From the sequence record PX871047.1: a stretch of 42,242 nt of DNA. One strand, 5' to 3'. Every line of letters begins with the position of its first letter. Position 1 is the stretch's first letter. This DNA is from a phage. The notes beneath the pieces are model-generated. The model was given only the letters and a program-made list of their open reading frames with translations, did not search any database and had not been told where the DNA came from. This document shows, in pieces, positions 29,230 to 40,333 of this stretch. The position numbers were made by a program, and so were the translations under genes.

Positions 29230-29234
29230 AACTA

Positions 29235-29260
29235 AGGCCCCGTCTGGGGCCTTTTTTTTT
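29235..29260. terminator. bidirectional intrinsic terminator
   Basis: AGGCCCC / GGGGCCT stem followed by eight T; A-rich upstream. Confidence 0.8.
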
Positions 29261-29580: not shown

Positions 29581-31007
29581 TTCTTACTCCTACGTTTCAT
29601 GTAATTAAGCAGCTCTTCCTGTACAGATTTCTTCTCATCTGTACGCGCGGCAACAACCTCGTCCAGCGTGTCTTTAGCAACGATGTGATAGAGAAACACC
29701 GGGCGCTCGTGGCCTGCCTGTTTCTGGCGGACCGGGCCTATACGCTCGACAACCTGCAAATAGTGCTCAAGGTTCCAGCCTTGCGAGATGAACGCCAGAT
29801 GATGTCCGCCATCCTGTAAATTCAAACCATGCCCGGCTGACGCAGGGTGTACGCATAAGATTTCTATTTCGCCGCGGTTCCACGCTTCCATCTGCTTATT
29901 ACCCTTAGCACCTTTGGCAAACGCCTGTGCTTGCGGGAATCGTTTAAGGATGCGCTCCAGTTCGTGCTTGAACTGATAGGCTACCAGTAGCGGCGCGCCC
30001 TGTAACTCCTCAACAATTGACTCCAGCGCATCCAGTTTCGTGTCGTGCACTTTCTCCCAGTCTTTTGTCGCTTCTCCGTCTGGTCCCGACACATATACGG
30101 CACCGGATGCAATCTGCAAACACTTCGACGTCTTCGCTGCCGCGTTAGCTGCCTCAACTTCTCCGCTCTCCAGTTCCGCAAATAACTTCTCCTCCATATC
30201 TATGTACGCCTGACGCGCTTTCTTCGGCAGGTCGATTTCAACAGGTACGATAACCGGCGCTTCGCATCCGAACCACTCAGCGGCGTCAATCGTGAGACTG
30301 ATGTCCTTCATCTTCTGGTGGATTTCAGTATCCGCACCCGGGCGGGCGTGGTACTCACGTGCCATAGCCGATTTGCCTTTTTGCACCGAGTTAAACCAGC
30401 GGTCGGTGAATGCCGTGTACGATGAACCAAGTCGCTCGCCTGCGTCGATAAACCAGTTCTGCCCCCACAGGTCTTTGAGGCCGTTTGGCGACGGCGTACC
30501 TGTCAGGTTAATGAACCGCTTAACCTTGCCGAACGCCACTTTGCTGAGTGCCTTCGCGCGCTTGCTGCCGCCAGAACGGCTACGGAAAGATTTAAGTTTC
30601 GTGCTTTCATCGGCAACGATAACCGTAAAAGGCCAGTCGTCTTTGCCGTAGTAGTCAATCAGCCACTCGATAACTTCGTAGTTCGTACACACTACGTTAG
30701 CATCCGACTCCAGCGCCGCGATGCGGCGCTTCTCTGAACCAGTCGCATCGACGACACGCAGACAAGGGAAGTTCCAACGTGCCTGTTCCGCGGGCCACGT
30801 ACCTGACGCAACACGTAAAGGGGCAAGAATTAACACTCGGTCGTCGTCATTAAGTTGCCCATTACGGAACAGTCGATTGAGAACCCACAACGTTGACCCC
30901 GACTTGCCGCTGCCCATCGAAGCCCAAATATTACAGCGAGGGTGCCGCAGCATGAACGAAGTCATGAGCTTTTGGTACTCTCGACGGATAAATTTAGACA
31001 TAATCAA
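29577..31007 (-). CDS. SNF2/DEAD-like superfamily 2 helicase
   Basis: Walker A MGSGKSGST, motif II VADEST, C-terminal helicase-C-like region. Confidence 0.7.
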   Translation of the reverse strand: MIMSKFIRREYQKLMTSFMLRHPRCNIWASMGSGKSGSTLWVLNRLFRNGQLNDDDRVLILAPLRVASGTWPAEQARWNFPCLRVVDATGSEKRRIAALESDANVVCTNYEVIEWLIDYYGKDDWPFTVIVADESTKLKSFRSRSGGSKRAKALSKVAFGKVKRFINLTGTPSPNGLKDLWGQNWFIDAGERLGSSYTAFTDRWFNSVQKGKSAMAREYHARPGADTEIHQKMKDISLTIDAAEWFGCEAPVIVPVEIDLPKKARQAYIDMEEKLFAELESGEVEAANAAAKTSKCLQIASGAVYVSGPDGEATKDWEKVHDTKLDALESIVEELQGAPLLVAYQFKHELERILKRFPQAQAFAKGAKGNKQMEAWNRGEIEILCVHPASAGHGLNLQDGGHHLAFISQGWNLEHYLQVVERIGPVRQKQAGHERPVFLYHIVAKDTLDEVVAARTDEKKSVQEELLNYMKRRSKK

Positions 31008-31198
31008 CCCTTAACGTAGAGCACCAGCTCTTTACGCCCGAACGCCGTAACGTTACCCGTTACATCTTCGATAACCAGTTTACCGTTCGACTCGACGAAC
31101 ACCGTATCAACGGCAACCGGACGTCGGGTCTTAACGTTGAAAATCATGTCGCCCGGTACGATGTCACGTGCGGGTTTGCGGTCATATTCGTGTTTCAT
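31004..31198 (-). CDS. hypothetical protein
   Basis: Track ORF, ATGA-coupled to helicase. Confidence 0.45.
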   Translation of the reverse strand: MKHEYDRKPARDIVPGDMIFNVKTRRPVAVDTVFVESNGKLVIEDVTGNVTAFGRKELVLYVKG

Positions 31199-31237
31199 TT
31201 CTCAATTCCTTATAGTTAAGGCCCCGAAGGGCCTGTA

Positions 31238-31492
31238 TTAGTTAGATAATTCGCCTTGAACTTGCTTAATAAGTTCTCTGGCCGTTGTGAAGTCTACGGA
31301 CAGCCCTTTAGCGACGTCTTCCGCAAGCACCTTGTGGCCAACTGACCCGAAGCCCAGGATACGGTTTACTTCCGAAACCTTCATAGACCATGAGTAATTA
31401 ACTGACGCCCCTGTGTATTTACCGATACGAACAGATGAATCGATTGAACCAATAATCATGGTGTTTACTGACAGTTGAAGTTCGATAGCCAT
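31238..31492 (-). CDS. hypothetical protein
   Basis: Track ORF with own consensus promoter 31527-31555. Confidence 0.5.
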   Translation of the reverse strand: MAIELQLSVNTMIIGSIDSSVRIGKYTGASVNYSWSMKVSEVNRILGFGSVGHKVLAEDVAKGLSVDFTTARELIKQVQGELSN

Positions 31493-31493
31493 T

Positions 31494-31808
31494 TTATAAT
31501 TCCTTATATTGTTGAGGTATGTGCTTACTATAATAGTCTGCTATTAGGGTGTCAATCTGTTTTATCGAACCAACGACAAAAACATTCGCGCCACGTTTAC
31601 GCATCCGCTCGTGCTCGCGTAACTGGTGTGGGTCTGGCTTCGTGCTTTCATCTTTCTTAACCTCAACGAACCAGATGATGCCGCCGGGGAGGATTACCAA
31701 CAGGTCGGGCGCTCCGTTTCGGCCCTCATACACTATCTTACGAACGAGGCCCCCCAGGGCCTCGAATCGGTCTTTCGCGTATTTCTGTACGCGGCCCTCT
31801 TTAGTCAT
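31494..31808 (-). CDS. VRR-NUC domain nuclease
   Basis: GAPDLLVILPGG..WFVEVK...QL pattern typical of VRR-NUC; ATG 31808 coupled to upstream micro-ORF (track ORF begins at TTG 31823). Confidence 0.6.
   Translation of the reverse strand: MTKEGRVQKYAKDRFEALGGLVRKIVYEGRNGAPDLLVILPGGIIWFVEVKKDESTKPDPHQLREHERMRKRGANVFVVGSIKQIDTLIADYYSKHIPQQYKEL
31527..31555 (-). promoter_or_regulatory. promoter with embedded AATAG-N4-CTATT dyad (type B)
   Basis: Minus strand TTGACA - 17 nt - TATAGT; dyad 31532-31545. Confidence 0.6.
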
Positions 31809-31957
31809 GGGCGTAGAACCCAAGTAAGGAAAGCCCCTCCTAGAACGGCAACACCGACAAACTTAAAGAACAGGCCATAACAGAACATCGTGGCTATTCC
31901 CGCCCCGAGTAACAGTGCAAGCATGGTTACTATTGCCCAAAATACAAACATTGTCAT
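31805..31957 (-). CDS. small membrane protein (50 aa)
   Basis: GAGGGG before ATG; two hydrophobic segments; ATGA-coupled at both ends. Confidence 0.4.
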   Translation of the reverse strand: MTMFVFWAIVTMLALLLGAGIATMFCYGLFFKFVGVAVLGGAFLTWVLRP

Positions 31958-32043
31958 AATACACACCCCTCACGTTTCGTGTGCTCAATCCCGCAGCGCG
32001 GACAGATTCGACAGTCTTCTTCATAGAACCAGTAGATTTTCAT
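31954..32043 (-). CDS. Cys-rich micro-protein (29 aa)
   Basis: MKIYWFYEEDCRICPRCGIEHTKREGCVL; ATGA-coupled at both ends. Confidence 0.3.
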   Translation of the reverse strand: MKIYWFYEEDCRICPRCGIEHTKREGCVL

Positions 32044-32171
32044 TCCAGCACCCACAGATAAATTGCGATGAACATACCTAATACGGCTACAATCATGCCG
32101 TATTGGCCCTCGTGACAGTAGACACCGGCGGCAAATCCCGCCAGTACTGTGATAATCAGTTTACTTAGCAT
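32040..32171 (-). CDS. small membrane protein (43 aa)
   Basis: Start overlaps 3' end of polymerase gene; hydrophobic; ATGA-coupled downstream. Confidence 0.35.
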   Translation of the reverse strand: MLSKLIITVLAGFAAGVYCHEGQYGMIVAVLGMFIAIYLWVLE

Positions 32172-34434
32172 AACGGTACACCTCTCCCCCAGCCCATGTT
32201 AACGGGAACCCTTCGGCCCACTCAGGTAATGAGCATAGCAGGTCACCCATCTCTTTAACCGTGTACTCTGGCGTGTCTGGCGTTTCGGCAACACATTCGT
32301 CATGTACGTGGAGTACAATTGGGTAGCCCGCCGCCTCGACCGTCAGGAGTCCGTTAACCAGTAAATCACGGCACAACGCCTGGATGATGTTTTCACACAA
32401 TTTTCCGCCGTGTGTGTACAAAGTTGTCCACTGGCGGGTGGTCTGATTTTCGCCCTGGTATTTAATGCGAACGTTAGTTGTTACACGCCCGTCCTCGTCG
32501 GTCTCTTTAGTGACGCTTAAGCCTATGCCAGGGTAGGACATGATGCGCCCCGACGGCAGCTCCACGCACAACCACCAACCTGGCACAAAGTTACCTTGTC
32601 TGTCTTTCTCCTTAGTACGCCAGATGCGAATAGCTCTGTCGCCGTTGGGGCGGACTCTGGCCCCCGCCCAAAACTCTCGTCCCGGATTTCTAATTGCAGC
32701 AATCACCGAATCCTTAAGGTCGTTCCAGAATTTCACTGTTTCCGGATGGGCCTCACGCCACATGCGCTTGATAGCATCGCAAGTGCGCCAGACTTCTTTA
32801 GGCAGCACATAAGAGGCCCGTTCATCCTTTTTACCGGGTTTTGGGGGCCGCTTAGCCTCCTGAATCCGCGCCCATTCATAGCCTCGGGCAGTGGCGGCCC
32901 ATATATGGTCAGGGAATGTTCCCCGCATTGTCTCCGTCATTTTAAAGAGGTCCAGCCCGTAAGTTTTAGCCATAGTCATGAAGGCCCCCACGCCCCCCTC
33001 GTAGCCGAGGCCGAGCTCGCAACATTTCCCGACCTGTCGCAGGTCTTTACGGGTGGCTTTCAGTTCTATGGGGTCCATACCAAACATCTTGCCCGCAGTG
33101 GCGCAATAAATATCAATCCCCGCGCGGAACGTCTCAAGCGCGGATGTCTCCCCCGCGGTCCAGGCCAACCCGCGCCCTTCTACGTTTGAGTAGTCGGCAA
33201 CGAGCAACTTATTACCCTTTTCAGGGATGATGCAACTGCGAACAGTCGAGGCTGTCAGCTTGGATACGTCGAAACGACGGTGCGCCCGACCCTTTAGCAG
33301 CAGATTGATGCCGAACGATAGGGGGTTGAGACGACGGTTCCAGTCTTCGTCGGACTCCCACGGCTGGCGCACAAGTTTCTTTTCCTCGTTAGTCGGGTCG
33401 TCGTGGTAGTACCCGCGCGACAGGTTCTGCGGTTGGAACCCTTTACCCGCAAATCGTAAAGTGCGCTTTGCCCCACCGTACTGGATGCAACCGCGGCGGC
33501 GGCCGTCTTTGGACCGTCCTAGCAGGAGCGGTTTGTATTTTGTCGACGCCGTGGAGGCCGCGCCGAGGCGCATCTCAATGATTGTGCGCGCATCGTCAGG
33601 TAAGTCGTCGTCCTCTAGCAAACCTTCGAGCGTTGCTTTCTGTGCATTATAGATATTGTAGGCCGGTGCCAGCTCCCGAAGGATTGGCAGGAAGTCTTTA
33701 CCCGTTAGCTTCCCGCCAAATTTAGCCCTGGCCTCGTTTTTTAGCTCTTGCTTGTGGCGTTCAACTGCTGCTACCGCCGCCTCAGCAAGAGCCGCATCAA
33801 CAAAGAAGCCTCGGTCGTTGATTAACTGGTCAAGTTCAAGTACACGGTCCTCGAAATCGGAGTTACCCCAACGTGGCAGCTTATGGAAGACTTCACGCAT
33901 CGCTGTGATGTCGCTCACGGCATACTTGATGAACAGGGCCCACTCGTCAGGGTGAGTTTCTGCGGTGTAGCGGCGGATTTTGTAGTTCTTCGGCGTCGGT
34001 TTAGAGAAACGCTTAATCAGCGCCTTGCCGCGTTTATCTTTTGCATTGTCGGCGGATACGCCCAGCACTTCGCACAATGCGTCAAGTGACCCCGGCAGCG
34101 CGTGACGAAACGCCCAAATCATCGTATCAATGGTGTTGCTTACCGGAATATCAAAGTCCCAGCAGTGCTTCATGACGAGCCTGTCGAACATTGAGCCGTT
34201 GTGCCACACCATCTTAATACGACTGTTTGGCTTAACCAGGCGGCGCAAGGCGCGATGCAAATCCCCCGGCATGTCGCTGCCGTCAGTGCAGTCCCATACC
34301 TGAACAGGCTCGTCATCAAAAGCATAGGTGCAGATGAGCACTTCGGTAGTCGGGTGTTCGGCGTAAGCATAGGAGCCGACTTTCTTCAAATCGGCTTCGG
34401 AGAAGGTTTCAAAGTCTAAGAACAGATAACTCAT
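32161..34434 (-). CDS. DNA polymerase, family A, with 3'-5' exonuclease domain
   Basis: Exo motif LFLDFETFS; pol motifs DYSNVEGR, K...LGLGYEGG, VHDECV. Confidence 0.85.
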   Translation of the reverse strand: MSYLFLDFETFSEADLKKVGSYAYAEHPTTEVLICTYAFDDEPVQVWDCTDGSDMPGDLHRALRRLVKPNSRIKMVWHNGSMFDRLVMKHCWDFDIPVSNTIDTMIWAFRHALPGSLDALCEVLGVSADNAKDKRGKALIKRFSKPTPKNYKIRRYTAETHPDEWALFIKYAVSDITAMREVFHKLPRWGNSDFEDRVLELDQLINDRGFFVDAALAEAAVAAVERHKQELKNEARAKFGGKLTGKDFLPILRELAPAYNIYNAQKATLEGLLEDDDLPDDARTIIEMRLGAASTASTKYKPLLLGRSKDGRRRGCIQYGGAKRTLRFAGKGFQPQNLSRGYYHDDPTNEEKKLVRQPWESDEDWNRRLNPLSFGINLLLKGRAHRRFDVSKLTASTVRSCIIPEKGNKLLVADYSNVEGRGLAWTAGETSALETFRAGIDIYCATAGKMFGMDPIELKATRKDLRQVGKCCELGLGYEGGVGAFMTMAKTYGLDLFKMTETMRGTFPDHIWAATARGYEWARIQEAKRPPKPGKKDERASYVLPKEVWRTCDAIKRMWREAHPETVKFWNDLKDSVIAAIRNPGREFWAGARVRPNGDRAIRIWRTKEKDRQGNFVPGWWLCVELPSGRIMSYPGIGLSVTKETDEDGRVTTNVRIKYQGENQTTRQWTTLYTHGGKLCENIIQALCRDLLVNGLLTVEAAGYPIVLHVHDECVAETPDTPEYTVKEMGDLLCSLPEWAEGFPLTWAGGEVYRYAK

Positions 34435-35183: not shown

Positions 35184-35212
35184 AATATAATAGCTAACTA
35201 TTCAGGTGTCAA
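35184..35212 (-). promoter_or_regulatory. promoter with embedded AATAG-N4-CTATT dyad (type B)
   Basis: Minus strand TTGACA - 17 nt - TATATT; dyad 35189-35202. Confidence 0.6.
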
Positions 35213-38065: not shown

Positions 38066-40333
38066 CTATTCCAAATCCTCCTCTGTCACTATCAGCATTT
38101 CATTCGGCTCGTATATTGTCTTCGGAATCTTGTTATCCGTTATCCTGGTATTAAGCCTGTAACGACCAGGGATTATCTGATTGTTTTCGTCAGTACCCGG
38201 AACAAGATACCCGGCCTCGACCATTTTCTTAATCTTCCCTCGCTCTATGGCTTCTTTGGAGTTAAACGCCTTCGCATTGGGGTCGGACTGTGCGAGCTTA
38301 TTTGCGGCGGCTACCGTGATACCTTCGTTGCCGTTGTAGGTTCCTTCCGCCAGTTCAAACGCGGCCAGTATCGTGGCCTCGGAACTGTTGACGGCGTTCT
38401 CTACGGTTTTACGTACGTTTTCTTTACCTTCCTTTGTTAGCCCTTCTTCGCGCTCTTTTTCCTCGTCGGTTTTGAACGGTTCGAAACCCCACGGCATCAG
38501 CACAAGCGCCTTGTGTGGTTCAGGCAGGTCGAGGTTTACTATTGTGCCGTATTCCTCTGTGCTACCGAGGAACTCAACAGCGCGGTACTCTTTCGGCGGC
38601 GGCGCTTCACGGAACTGTACCGACTCAAGCACCATACCAACCGTCTTCTGTTGAGGCCCGTGCTTAAATTTCGAGTGGTATACGTTTATCTGGCGGTCGG
38701 TCGCGCGTTCAATTGTCAGTTCCACGTCGACGCCAGCATACAGCGCCCCACTACCACGGGCTTTCTTTCCACCCTTCGGCGTATGGTGAACAACGCCTAC
38801 CGCGGCTTTAGTCGCGTCACGCACTTCTTTCAGGATGGCGATAACTTTACCCATGCCGATTGCCGTTGATGAGCTGTTCTCGTCGAACTTATCAATAGTC
38901 AGTGCCAGGGTCTGGTTGAGGGTGTCAAACGCGACCATGCCAATTGGCTCGTCGCCAGCAGTTTCGCGCATTAACTTAATCAGGCTCTTCAGTTTGCCGA
39001 CTTCGCCCATATCGATGACATGTACGTAATCTTTACCCTCTGCGCCGTATTTAGCAGCGAGCGCGTCAATACGTGTACGTGTGGCCGCGCCGCCCTCACC
39101 GTCGATATAGAAGTGGTGGCAACGCTGCGTATCAGCTCCCGCAAACCGGTATCCTGCGGCGCTAAGGTACATCATCCCCAGTGTATAAAACGATTTGTAC
39201 GTGCCAGATTCCCCGACGATATCCCAGATACAATCTGATGGCATGTACCCTTCAACGACGAAATCAGCCTTTACCGGTTCCGGTAACTCATCCTCCTCTG
39301 AGTCCTCGTCGTCTTCCAGGTCGTCGAGGCTGCATGAAACTGATTCACGCGCGCCCCAGCCAATTGCCTCAGCGACTTCACTGAACGGCAGCCCAGTCGC
39401 ATCGCACGCATACTTCCACACCTCTTTCGGTGACATGCCTTCGGTTGCCGTAATGTCGGTGTCGTGAATCATGGTTACGTTAGGCGCTTCATATCCTTCG
39501 CGTGGGAAGCACAGCAGGAAGTCGTCCGGGCGCGGGGTAGGGTCACTGTAGTTTTCGGCGTGTTCTGGTGTGGCTGGCATTTTCAGGCCGCGGGGCGTCA
39601 GGACTCCGCCGTACTCGAACGCCAGTGCTTCGAACGCATCAGTAAACGCTGTGCGCAGTTCTTCCGGTATCTGGTAGTCAGATGCGCTGCTCACCTCGTA
39701 ATCCGGGGTGCCTTCCAGTAACTCGTCCGGGTCAATCAGGTCGTTGCGGCGCGACCAGATAACGGTAGCGCCGACAGGAGGCAGGTACATCGGCTGGGAC
39801 AGGGTAAAACCGCTGCGGTCGGCGCCCATGCCCTTGAAGAAGTGCTCCAGCAGACCGTGGCGGACGCGGATGATATCACCGCCTTCTACCGGGCGCGCCA
39901 GCGGCATGACGACACGGAAACGCGGCGATTCGTCAGTGTGCGATGCCGTAGTGTACAGGCACAACGCTACACGACTGCGCTTAACCAGACGCACAGCCTC
40001 CTGATACTCTTCCGGTGTTGCGCTGTCGAAGTCCAGATACGCCAGCGACGATTCGCTTACAGACGCGTCACAACGGTAGAAGAAGCCTTTACGCGCTTGC
40101 TTAAAGTCACCGGTTTCCGGGTCTTTTACGGTGCTGTGCGTTGAGTCGCACGCGGCGGTAATGTAGCCCGGCGCGGTCTTTGGGTTAATCCCGTCACGAA
40201 CAGCATCTAGCGGCTGGATTAACTCTTTCAGGTCGTCCAGTGTTGCCGTGTGCGTGGTTCTGACGTTTATATCCTTTTTCTCCGCCCGCGCGTTGCGACG
40301 AGACCATGAATAGGATAAAATTACATCGGACAT
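38066..40333 (-). CDS. primase-helicase (AEP-type primase/polymerase domain fused to RecA-like helicase domain)
   Basis: N-terminal LDFD-containing primase-polymerase-like region; C-terminal Walker A GESGTYKS and RecA-like core. Confidence 0.6.
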   Translation of the reverse strand: MSDVILSYSWSRRNARAEKKDINVRTTHTATLDDLKELIQPLDAVRDGINPKTAPGYITAACDSTHSTVKDPETGDFKQARKGFFYRCDASVSESSLAYLDFDSATPEEYQEAVRLVKRSRVALCLYTTASHTDESPRFRVVMPLARPVEGGDIIRVRHGLLEHFFKGMGADRSGFTLSQPMYLPPVGATVIWSRRNDLIDPDELLEGTPDYEVSSASDYQIPEELRTAFTDAFEALAFEYGGVLTPRGLKMPATPEHAENYSDPTPRPDDFLLCFPREGYEAPNVTMIHDTDITATEGMSPKEVWKYACDATGLPFSEVAEAIGWGARESVSCSLDDLEDDEDSEEDELPEPVKADFVVEGYMPSDCIWDIVGESGTYKSFYTLGMMYLSAAGYRFAGADTQRCHHFYIDGEGGAATRTRIDALAAKYGAEGKDYVHVIDMGEVGKLKSLIKLMRETAGDEPIGMVAFDTLNQTLALTIDKFDENSSSTAIGMGKVIAILKEVRDATKAAVGVVHHTPKGGKKARGSGALYAGVDVELTIERATDRQINVYHSKFKHGPQQKTVGMVLESVQFREAPPPKEYRAVEFLGSTEEYGTIVNLDLPEPHKALVLMPWGFEPFKTDEEKEREEGLTKEGKENVRKTVENAVNSSEATILAAFELAEGTYNGNEGITVAAANKLAQSDPNAKAFNSKEAIERGKIKKMVEAGYLVPGTDENNQIIPGRYRLNTRITDNKIPKTIYEPNEMLIVTEEDLE

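Follow-up and report, generated by a model that had tools for sequence, protein, structure and literature searches.

Three overlapping micro-ORFs between the DNA polymerase I and VRR-NUC genes of a Kagunavirus-like phage

Co-directional gene pairs with -4 overlaps have been studied in E. coli, where the tested pairs showed strict termination-reinitiation coupling and a variable contribution of the Shine-Dalgarno (SD) sequence (Huber et al. 2019 PMC6728339; 2023 PMC10666635). The locus described here lies in a window of 42,242 nucleotides (the whole stretch of DNA that was analysed; sequence record PX871047.1) and carries three micro-ORFs, which we call orfA, orfB and orfC. It shares with those pairs the co-directional arrangement, the -4 overlaps, the SD-less downstream genes (orfB and the VRR-NUC gene) and a geometry that survives a GTG start. 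It differs from them in that coupling is predicted from sequence, in that SD-driven genes (orfA and orfC) alternate with SD-less ones (orfB and VRR-NUC), and in that the upstream partners are optional cassettes instead of fixed subunits of a complex. The second arrangement to which the locus can be compared is the intergenic hotspot, flanked by conserved phage genes, into which free-standing HNH homing endonucleases and small morons insert. As in such hotspots, HNH genes occupy the same slot in relatives and mosaic breakpoints fall at gene borders; unlike in them, the window has no such endonuclease, the HNH genes of relatives are only putatively homing, and the cassettes are joined start codon to start codon, preserving the coupling.

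All three genes are already catalogued. They match function-unassigned PHROG families over their full length (phrog_10404, phrog_38225 and phrog_14925, E 1e-22 to 1e-32), of which the window genes are ordinary members, and relatives list them in GenBank as hypothetical proteins at the same position and with the same length and overlaps (hz69 UTQ77376-UTQ77378, Bas70_0039-0041, CPT_Sciku_038/039). We found no mention of orfA, orfB or orfC in the Guernseyvirinae/Jerseyvirinae literature. What we add is a worked example in which ATGA-chained phage ORFs of at most 50 codons appear to be real and a 29-codon gene, orfB, is universal in its clade yet often unannotated, together with the findings that orfA and orfC are optional and that phrog_38225 represents the A'-B fusion form of orfB. 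These data point to no new biological principle. As phages of the Guernseyvirinae are in wide use as biocontrol and therapy candidates against Salmonella and E. coli, small membrane-active or host-directed peptides encoded in them are worth knowing.

Gene layout, packing and selection

The window belongs to a Kagunavirus-like (Guernseyvirinae) phage, in which the micro-ORFs sit between the DNA polymerase I and VRR-NUC genes, all on the minus strand. The features of the interval, with the evidence for each, are as follows.

32161..34434, minus strand: DNA polymerase I gene, 757 aa (ORF list; same annotation in relatives)
32181..32187, minus strand: SD sequence of orfA, GGAGAGG, within the polymerase coding sequence (sequence; anti-SD duplex energy -8.8 kcal/mol)
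32040..32171, minus strand: orfA, 43 aa, hydrophobic, MLSKLIITVLAGFAAGVYCHEGQYGMIVAVLGMFIAIYLWVLE (phrog_10404; omega; 42/51 loci)
31954..32043, minus strand: orfB, 29 aa, polar and containing Cys/His, MKIYWFYEEDCRICPRCGIEHTKREGCVL (phrog_38225; omega; 51/51 loci)
31966..31971, minus strand: SD sequence GAGGGG, which coincides with codons E25-G26 of orfB and serves the gene next after orfB, here orfC (-8.8 kcal/mol)
31805..31957, minus strand: orfC, 50 aa, very hydrophobic, MTMFVFWAIVTMLALLLGAGIATMFCYGLFFKFVGVAVLGGAFLTWVLRP (phrog_14925; omega; 23/51 loci)
31494..31808, minus strand: VRR-NUC nuclease gene, 104 aa (matches to phrog_93 and phrog_5702)

The preliminary description had reported ORFs of 43, 29 and 50 codons linked by ATGA to one another and to the VRR-NUC gene, and both the coordinates and the links proved exact: at the orfA/orfB, orfB/orfC and orfC/VRR-NUC junctions alike, the start codon overlaps the preceding TGA stop. 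The polymerase/orfA junction, which it had passed over, is not ATGA and consists of an 11-nt overlap (ATGCTAAGTAA) that is kept in 50 of the 51 loci compared. At the other end of the interval, the VRR-NUC N-terminus, MT(K/P)EG, is conserved as far as outgroups. Two competing ORFs were rejected, namely an antisense ORF of 63 aa (31890..32081, plus strand), the length of which varies from 52 to 97 codons among relatives, and a same-strand alternative beginning MKKTVESV, which is variable in length, broken in relatives and has a frame omega above 1.

The claim that such a chain is unlikely by chance holds in one respect and fails in another. When the region was dinucleotide-shuffled 20,000 times, chains of three NTGA-linked ORFs arose in 62 cases, counting ORFs of at least 25 codons under lenient criteria, and against this background the chain is indeed unusual. 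Set against the phage's own gene packing, it is not. In the close relative hz69, ATGA overlaps join 19 of the 67 same-strand adjacent gene pairs (28%), three ATGA junctions follow one another in two further places, and 19 of 76 genes encode 60 aa or fewer. Since more than a quarter of the gene pairs are joined in this way, the pattern is ordinary packing. The chain is normal for this phage type; it marks real genes and is no special device.

Selection was examined on unique sequences drawn from 51 related loci (37 for orfA, 42 for orfB and 17 for orfC), with the polymerase C-terminus as the control. In pooled pairwise comparisons, which ignore phylogeny and recombination, in-frame omega was 0.205 for orfA, 0.079 for the orfB core and 0.155 for orfC, and the polymerase C-terminus gave 0.077. 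Values in shifted frames were 0.9-3.1 (1.0 and 2.0 in the case of orfA), and most of these frames contained stops. None of the unique sequences of the three ORFs has an internal stop, and each ORF keeps its length from locus to locus. Variation falls mainly on third codon positions in orfB (7/5/18 variable sites at positions 1/2/3) and orfC (16/7/30); the third-position excess is weak in orfA (21/19/30). The PHROG profiles cover orfA from end to end (E=1.7e-30, residues 1-43 on positions 1-43 of phrog_10404), residues 1-28 of orfB (E=2.5e-22, positions 5-32 of 36 in phrog_38225) and residues 1-49 of orfC (E=2.8e-32, positions 1-49 of 50 in phrog_14925), and the micro-ORFs carry CDS annotation in hz69, Bas70 and Sciku. 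Conservation of the frames and overlaps in relatives, which the preliminary description had proposed as a check, was thus borne out by purifying selection, constant lengths and kept junctions, and these comparisons indicate that the three ORFs are genuine small protein-coding genes. It is hardly conceivable that the ORFs lie in a non-coding spacer and are open by chance. Their shortness, the absence of an orfB annotation from several GenBank records and the lack of an orfA or orfC annotation in some would suit that idea, but the evidence from selection, length, junctions and distribution contradicts it, and the shuffle test produced a chain in only 0.3% of trials even under its lenient criteria. 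The explanation that we consider likely as a whole is that the micro-ORFs are real genes of a leftward replication operon with coupled expression, in which orfB would encode a metal binder and orfA and orfC accessory membrane peptides.

Translation signals and proposed coupling

The two kinds of gene in the chain are distinguished by their initiation signals. Anti-SD duplex energies have a median of -6.9 kcal/mol over genes, and the background is -2.2 kcal/mol. The values are -8.8 kcal/mol for both orfA and orfC, -3.7 kcal/mol for orfB and -3.1 kcal/mol for VRR-NUC, meaning that orfA and orfC have strong SD sequences here and orfB and VRR-NUC have none. The VRR-NUC value depends on the architecture, with a median of -8.8 kcal/mol where the gene directly follows orfB versus -3.1 kcal/mol in the arrangement of the window. 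The GAGGGG motif in orfB precedes VRR-NUC, orfC, X64, HNH or tm peptides, according to the architecture, and the SD of orfA serves the A'-B fusion instead in relatives that lack orfA. The codons GAG-GGG that form the motif (E25-G26) are near-invariant, with one exception in 42 at G26; R24, T22 and G18 use four codons each. The -4 geometry is kept at the orfA/orfB junction in 42 of 42 loci and at every junction between orfB and the following cassette, and NTGA overlaps are retained even where the ATG start has changed to GTG. Between the polymerase and VRR-NUC genes, a minus-strand consensus scan gave no terminator-like site, a negative that is in itself no proof, and just one promoter-like match, a weak one (9/12) at 31957..31929.

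The coupling put forward in the preliminary description is plausible because SD sequences are absent at orfB and VRR-NUC and strong at orfA and orfC. We infer from these signals that orfB and VRR-NUC are translated by termination-reinitiation, to which weak non-SD initiation at the two genes may be an alternative. In the scheme we propose, one polycistronic mRNA would carry all the genes. Ribosomes would load at the strong SD in the 3' end of the polymerase gene and translate orfA, and termination at the orfA UGA would lead to reinitiation at the overlapping AUG of orfB. The second strong SD, contributed by the conserved Glu-Gly codons of orfB, would load ribosomes for orfC, and termination at the orfC UGA would pass them on to the AUG of VRR-NUC. 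A cassette inserted after orfB would take over the original ribosome-binding site of VRR-NUC, and its ATGA junction would restore expression of the nuclease. This gives a testable picture, in which cassettes are inserted between a ribosome-binding site and the nuclease gene and expression is rescued by the stop/start overlap.

An improbable variant of this scheme is that only translation across the interval matters, with the ORFs delivering ribosomes to VRR-NUC and the peptides, at least those of orfA and orfC, having no function of their own. It would account for the very different cassettes that share one slot and one ATGA geometry (orfC, a 64-aa protein, 23-25-aa peptides, an HNH gene or an HNH remnant) and for the missing SDs of orfB and VRR-NUC. 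However, the amino-acid sequences of all three ORFs are under purifying selection (omega 0.08-0.21), a relay does not require conserved lengths of 43 or 50 codons, and VRR-NUC has a strong SD of its own where no cassette is present and no relay is needed.

orfB, a Cys/His mini-protein

orfB is present in 51 of 51 loci and in approximately 445 phage genomes. It is the only universal gene of the three and a core gene of the Jerseyvirus/Kagunavirus clade; none of the three was found outside Guernseyvirinae-type phages. In a spread sample of tblastn matches, it is unannotated in 20 of 49 annotated records. The product has the layout EED-C-RI-CPRCG-IE-H-TKREG-C, with four Cys, one His and one CPxCG knuckle. 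C14 and C27 are conserved in 51/51 loci (C27 is R in P0011), C17 and H21 in 50/51, and C11 in about 43/51. The middle ORF had been described as Cys-rich, which is right in that its Cys and His residues are conserved; C11, the first Cys in that description, is the least conserved of the ligands. The natural variants C11R/S/F, C17Y, H21Y and C27R each leave four of the five ligands in place, and the observation that two are never lost together is statistically non-significant at these numbers. The frame and the ligands persist in every architecture; this holds also for the in-frame A'-B fusion, the Jersey-type form of which is described by the 36-position profile of phrog_38225.

The closest described proteins are those with CPxCG (rubredoxin-type) zinc knuckles or ribbons, such as the C-terminal knuckle of COX5B, Nop10 and RNA polymerase subunit M. 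As in these proteins, a hydrophobic and probably strand-forming stretch of orfB is followed by CPRCG and further Cys/His within 14 residues. Unlike them, orfB has only one canonical knuckle, its ligand set (C-x2-C-x2-C-x3-H-x5-C) contains one to spare, and at 29 aa it is below the typical size of a ribbon; zinc binding is putative. No significant similarity links them either, as the best hits with orfB were E=0.22 in Pfam and E=0.3 in a PDB sequence search, the latter to the strand and knuckle of COX5B and useful as a lead only. A single-sequence AF2 model reached a pLDDT of 60 with no secondary structure. HMMER against 1.84 billion representatives returned two clade members and one repeat-inflated spurious match, P0012, and a homology search with three concatenated natural orfB variants yielded nothing but assembly gene calls in which A-B or B-C had been fused by a frameshift, and no Rosetta-stone fusion. 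A relationship to the Cys4 Lar-like protein that adjoins VRR-NUC in outgroups was rejected (hhalign probability 4.5%).

Judged by its motif, orfB would be a metal-binding mini-protein of about 3.5 kDa with a CPxCG knuckle and Cys3His or Cys4 coordination, and its conserved position suggests the neighbouring replication/recombination proteins as its most likely partners. A bolder version, which we offer as speculation and think rather unlikely, is that orfB is the smallest core gene of the clade, encoding a zinc-binding peptide of 29-36 residues that is a dedicated subunit or cofactor of VRR-NUC (or the polymerase). Its codons would double as the ribosome-binding site of the next gene, and it would be followed by a start-codon-precise cassette slot exchanging membrane micro-proteins and homing endonucleases with expression of the nuclease intact.

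Two readings that would deprive orfB of a separate protein product were weighed against these data. The first, which attributes its conservation to DNA or RNA acting in cis (for example as an endonuclease target, an origin or a structured RNA), finds some footing in orfB being the most conserved part of the interval, in its containing the SD of the next gene and in the near absence of synonymous variation at E8, E9, I13, K23, E25 and G26 (at G26, one exception in 42 sequences). It is nevertheless very improbable, given that 18 of 23 third positions in orfB vary, pS is 0.41 against a pN of 0.045, several codons use all four synonyms, an Rfam scan of 31000-33000 gave no match, and the frame and ligands are kept in every architecture, the A'-B fusion included. 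The second reading makes orfB a C-terminal extension of the polymerase produced by stop-codon readthrough. In the window, the two share a frame that is open from the polymerase TAA through the whole of orfA, and gene callers often give products of 68-73 aa in this frame or A-B frameshift fusions. On the other hand, translation stops efficiently at TAA, 39 codons would stay open by chance about 15% of the time, the frame has an omega of 2.0 across the orfA region, and phages that lack orfA fuse orfB to the orfA start in a frame other than that of the polymerase. With the frame relation not conserved and an omega of 2.0, we rejected readthrough, to which we attach practically no probability, and retain orfB as a protein-coding gene in its own right.

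orfA and orfC, optional hydrophobic peptides

In contrast to orfB, orfA and orfC are optional. orfA was found in 42 of 51 loci and approximately 224 phage genomes and orfC in 23 of 51 loci and approximately 122 genomes, so that orfA is missing from roughly half of the relatives and orfC from roughly three quarters. The 51 loci show 13 architectures, distributed patchily relative to the polymerase tree. Where orfC is absent, the slot after orfB can hold an HNH endonuclease, a 64-aa protein or 23-25-aa peptides instead. In relatives, HNH genes of 163-231 aa or a 43-aa HNH remnant lie after orfB, and in one case the slot after the polymerase gene is occupied in this way. This comparison shows orfA and orfC to be optional cassettes at a hypervariable site bounded by the polymerase and VRR-NUC genes. 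As they are both optional and replaceable, a stoichiometric partnership with the replication proteins is unlikely.

That two of the three ORFs are hydrophobic, as first described, was confirmed by GRAVY values of 1.47 for orfA and 1.74 for orfC. orfA has two hydrophobic segments split by the loop CHEGQYG, whereas orfC is hydrophobic over residues 1-48, and the segments of both are long enough to span a bilayer. AF2 modelled orfC as one helix of 47 residues (residues 2-48, pLDDT 94), to which a hairpin may be an alternative topology. With 43-50 aa, an almost wholly hydrophobic composition and predicted helicity, the two peptides resemble holins, superinfection-exclusion peptides and type I toxins, from which they differ in having no sequence relationship to them and in lying outside the lysis cassette. 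Nor does their location suit a holin, since orfA and orfC are flanked by the polymerase gene and the nuclease gene; the endolysin of hz69 and its neighbouring small genes are at 38225-39261, approximately 29 kb from the micro-ORF locus. We propose that orfA and orfC would be small helical membrane peptides with an accessory role, directed at the host or at competing phages, and not a role in replication.

A more specific reading, in which we place slightly less than even confidence, is that orfA and orfC are cargo, selfish or accessory, with no part in replication (serving superinfection exclusion, host takeover, anti-defence or toxicity), recombined into a hotspot shared with homing endonucleases, and that only orfB belongs to the replication module. 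Their patchy presence and absence in both Escherichia and Salmonella phages is consistent with this, as is the occurrence of HNH endonucleases and decayed HNH in the same slot. A sharp mosaic breakpoint at the polymerase/orfA border, with an A-B-C block more homogeneous than the 3' end of the polymerase gene, points in the same direction. Against it, Pfam, NCBIfam and PADLOC gave no significant match for orfA, orfB or orfC, and hence no homology of the cassettes to known exclusion, toxin or anti-defence families. The cargo reading agrees with what our preferred explanation says of the accessory genes, and sharpens it.

Gene layout and coding status of the three small ORFs

Three micro-ORFs, orfA, orfB and orfC, lie between the DNA polymerase I gene and the VRR-NUC gene on the minus strand:

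34434..32161, minus: DNA polymerase I gene, 757 aa, stop TAA at 32163..32161
ATG at 32171, TGA at 32042..32040, minus: orfA, 43 aa
32043..31954, minus: orfB, 29 aa
31957..31805, minus: orfC, 50 aa
31808..31494, minus: VRR-NUC gene, 104 aa

Rechecking the ORF positions and ATGA junctions on this strand gave matching coordinates, and the preliminary description was therefore right in positions, lengths and sequence features. Its sole gap concerns the polymerase/orfA junction, which is an 11-nt overlap (ATGCTAAGTAA) and not ATGA. At the orfB, orfC and VRR-NUC starts, the TG of each ATG forms the opening bases of the previous TGA.

The comparison set comprised 51 loci, namely the window itself, 8 GenBank records and 42 IMG/VR contigs, and in every one the end of the polymerase gene and the start of VRR-NUC were mapped. 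Pooled Nei-Gojobori estimates gave an in-frame omega of 0.205 for orfA, 0.079 for the orfB core and 0.155 for orfC, with 0.077 for the last 60 codons of the polymerase; the two shifted frames gave 0.9-3.1 and mostly contained stops. Variable sites are concentrated at third codon positions in orfB (7/5/18) and orfC (16/7/30). The excess is weaker in orfA (21/19/30), as would be expected of I/V/L/M exchanges in hydrophobic stretches. orfA, orfB and orfC keep lengths of 43, 29 and 50 codons (orfB has 32, 33 or 36 in other architectures), and the -4 geometry, in which the start codon shares bases with the previous stop, is kept in 42/42 orfA/orfB junctions (as GTGA in two) and at all junctions between orfB and a following cassette. 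The 51-locus comparison thus revealed the conservation of frames and overlaps that had been proposed as a check. Judged by this comparison, orfA, orfB and orfC are all real coding genes. An antisense 63-codon ORF and a same-strand alternative ORF were rejected as genes, as neither is conserved in length across relatives, and an Rfam search of the region returned no match.

The coupling pattern had also been called unlikely by chance. This holds against random sequence, a three-ORF NTGA chain arising in 62 of 20,000 dinucleotide shuffles under deliberately lenient criteria (ATG, GTG and TTG starts all allowed, at least 25 codons), but not against the habits of this phage type. In the relative hz69, ATGA overlaps link 19 of the 67 adjacent gene pairs on the same strand (28%), 37 of the 67 show an overlap of any kind, two further runs of three consecutive ATGA junctions occur, and genes of 60 aa or less make up a quarter of the total. 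The ATGA chain is a sign of genuine, densely packed genes and not of a special mechanism.

Escherichia phage AV104 and several Kagunavirus records are 99% identical to the region, and 245-448 Guernseyvirinae records (Kagunavirus, Jerseyvirus) match it at lower identity. With the same overlaps, all three ORFs are already annotated as hypothetical proteins in hz69 and Bas70, and orfA and orfB in Sciku; LSPA1 is annotated without orfB, phiEc3 with orfA only, and Jersey strain UPWr_S1 with none. PHROG families of no assigned function match all three (E 1e-22 to 1e-32), and Pfam, NCBIfam and PADLOC profiles gave no significant match to any. The three genes fall into existing phage protein families, all uncharacterised, in which they are ordinary members, and they are annotated in relatives already. 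The -4-type overlap is, moreover, the commonest prokaryotic gene junction. The finding is therefore genuine but of an already known kind. The modest additions made here are that orfB is clade-universal yet often unannotated, that Shine-Dalgarno (SD) strength alternates along the chain, that cassettes (optional genes after orfB) are joined start codon to start codon, and that the Cys/His ligands of orfB are redundant.

Distribution and candidate zinc ligands of orfB

orfB is present in 51/51 loci and, by tblastn, in about 445 of ~448 region-matching phage records, the next-best hits being noise (E ≥2). When 1.84 billion representative proteins were searched exhaustively with HMMER, the only matches were clade members plus one repeat artefact; in 5.8 billion clusters searched by word index, the only matches were frameshift-fused orfA-orfB or orfB-orfC gene calls. 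orfB is therefore clade-specific and universal within the clade. It is missing from outgroups that carry a related nuclease. Dhillonvirus has the VRR-NUC start overlapping the polymerase stop directly, and the position is held by an unrelated 114-aa gene in Klebsiella phage VLCpiS11a and by unrelated small ORFs in a Cornellvirus-like phage. No feature is annotated under orfB in 20 of 49 annotated records, a spread sample of the tblastn matches. Standalone orfB is mostly missing from protein databases, and 68-79-aa gene calls from public assemblies (P0001-P0010) are frameshift fusions with orfA or orfC. Since the orfB frame stays open throughout orfA, a single-base indel or error is enough to yield a fused call.

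The product is polar, with the core EED-C11-RI-C14-PR-C17-G-IE-H21-TKREG-C27, in which CPRCG is a classical rubredoxin-type knuckle. Among the candidate ligands, C14 and C27 are kept in all 51 loci, C17 and H21 in 50 of them, and C11 in about 43, with R, S or F in its place elsewhere; one database variant (P0011) carries C27R. Every orfB variant retains four of the five, which is suggestive but not significant at these counts. The best PDB alignment, a non-significant one (E=0.3), covers a strand and the CPRCG knuckle of cytochrome oxidase subunit 5B, and a single-sequence AF2 model was uninformative (pLDDT 60). Zinc binding by orfB is likely from its residue pattern, and its conserved position suggests that it may act with the neighbouring replication/recombination proteins.

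Directly downstream of VRR-NUC, the outgroups VLCpiS11a, Maverick and SaI_NFG_5579 (L052-L054) encode a small Cys4 'Lar-like restriction alleviation' protein, which is unrelated to orfB on profile comparison. The window has 84-aa and 64-aa genes there, unrelated to the Lar-like protein.

orfA, orfC and the cassette slot

orfA occurs in 42/51 loci (about 224 genomes) and orfC in 23/51 (about 122 genomes), both in phages of Escherichia and of Salmonella. In orfA a conserved CHEGQYG loop separates two hydrophobic segments; orfC is hydrophobic throughout and was predicted by AF2 as a single helix (residues 2-48, pLDDT 94). Phages of the orfA-less Jersey, AG11 and f18SE type retain only seven codons from the start of orfA (MLSKLII), joined in frame to orfB residue 4; the resulting reading frame encodes 33-36 aa and keeps the 11-nt overlap with the polymerase gene. 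The slot between orfB and VRR-NUC is empty in some loci, where orfB overlaps VRR-NUC by 13 nt, and otherwise holds orfC, a soluble protein of 64 aa that orfC may or may not follow, 23-25-aa single-helix peptides, a 163-165-aa HNH endonuclease or a 43-aa HNH remnant. Altogether, 13 architectures were found in the 51 loci, interleaved on the polymerase 3'-end tree.

A sharp mosaic breakpoint lies at the polymerase/orfA border (window ~32160-32200; L002, L003, L012, L040). Compared with the window, LSPA1 shows 93-95% identity over the final 600 nt of the polymerase gene but 79% in orfA and 76% in VRR-NUC; for Bas70 the figures are 66% at the polymerase 3' end and 93% in orfA. The polymerase C-terminus falls into two diverged allele types, and the orfA-orfB-orfC block is more homogeneous. 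The patchy distribution of orfA and orfC, their replacement by other cassettes, the sharing of the slot with homing endonucleases and this breakpoint argue for an accessory role rather than one in replication.

HNH genes occur at the junction in L004 (Sciku), L032, L034 and L049, the 163-165-aa forms in the orfC slot; in L034 a 231-aa HNH-like gene separates the polymerase gene from orfA, and L049 has a 43-aa N-terminal remnant. The pattern suggests that homing endonucleases have repeatedly invaded this junction and decayed. The soluble, Cys-containing cassette protein of 63-64 aa (MSNKPFSKKLAALVDMPEWEFIMVMGDGFF..CAGCTHKG..; L007, L010, L011, L023, L029, L039, L045) is ATGA-coupled to orfB, with orfC behind or absent, and has no NCBIfam match. 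The peptides of 23 and 25 aa in L044 and L033 (MITIIAVLVALLLGAAIFSRIIG; MTMLTTIMIIVAVFLGVAVLSKVTD) have an upstream ATGA junction and a 1-nt overlap with VRR-NUC.

Translation and transcription signals

Anti-SD duplex energies were computed over the 18 nt preceding every start codon, with the annotated genes of hz69 (median -6.9 kcal/mol) and the genome background (-2.2) as references.

SD energies (kcal/mol) in the window and as the median across loci
orfA start: window -8.8, median -6.6
orfB start: window -3.7, median -3.7
orfC start: window -8.8, median -8.5
VRR-NUC start after orfC: window -3.1, median -3.1
VRR-NUC start directly after orfB: arrangement absent in the window, median -8.8

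At the end of orfB, AAACGNGAGGGGTGY-NNN(N)-ATG is always the SD and start of the next gene, whatever its identity, and the GAG-GGG codons (E25-G26) are invariant among neighbouring codons with up to four synonyms. A cassette inserted here would therefore capture the ribosome-binding site of the nuclease gene, whose start then sits on the cassette stop codon (ATGA or GTGA). In E. coli, native pairs with a -4 overlap showed strict termination-reinitiation coupling, which ~20 nt of spacing was enough to abolish, and the SD contribution differed by gene pair (PMC6728339, PMC10666635). The best-supported model from these signals is a relay, in which an SD would load orfA, reinitiation from orfA would serve orfB, the SD inside orfB would load orfC, and reinitiation from orfC would serve VRR-NUC.

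A sequence scan found no minus-strand terminator-like site between the polymerase and nuclease genes, and a strong sigma-70-like site lies upstream of the operon (35212..35184). A second strong site, a near-consensus sigma-70-like promoter (31555..31527, minus; TTGACA-17-TATAGT, 11/12), lies in the VRR-NUC 3' end, upstream of the 84-aa ORF (31492..31238), and a promoter is annotated at the corresponding position in AG11. The end of the tailspike gene (29229) and that of the leftward replication operon are separated by a strong terminator-like hairpin that is bidirectional (29234..29253; 8 bp with 6 GC and a plus-strand T-run).
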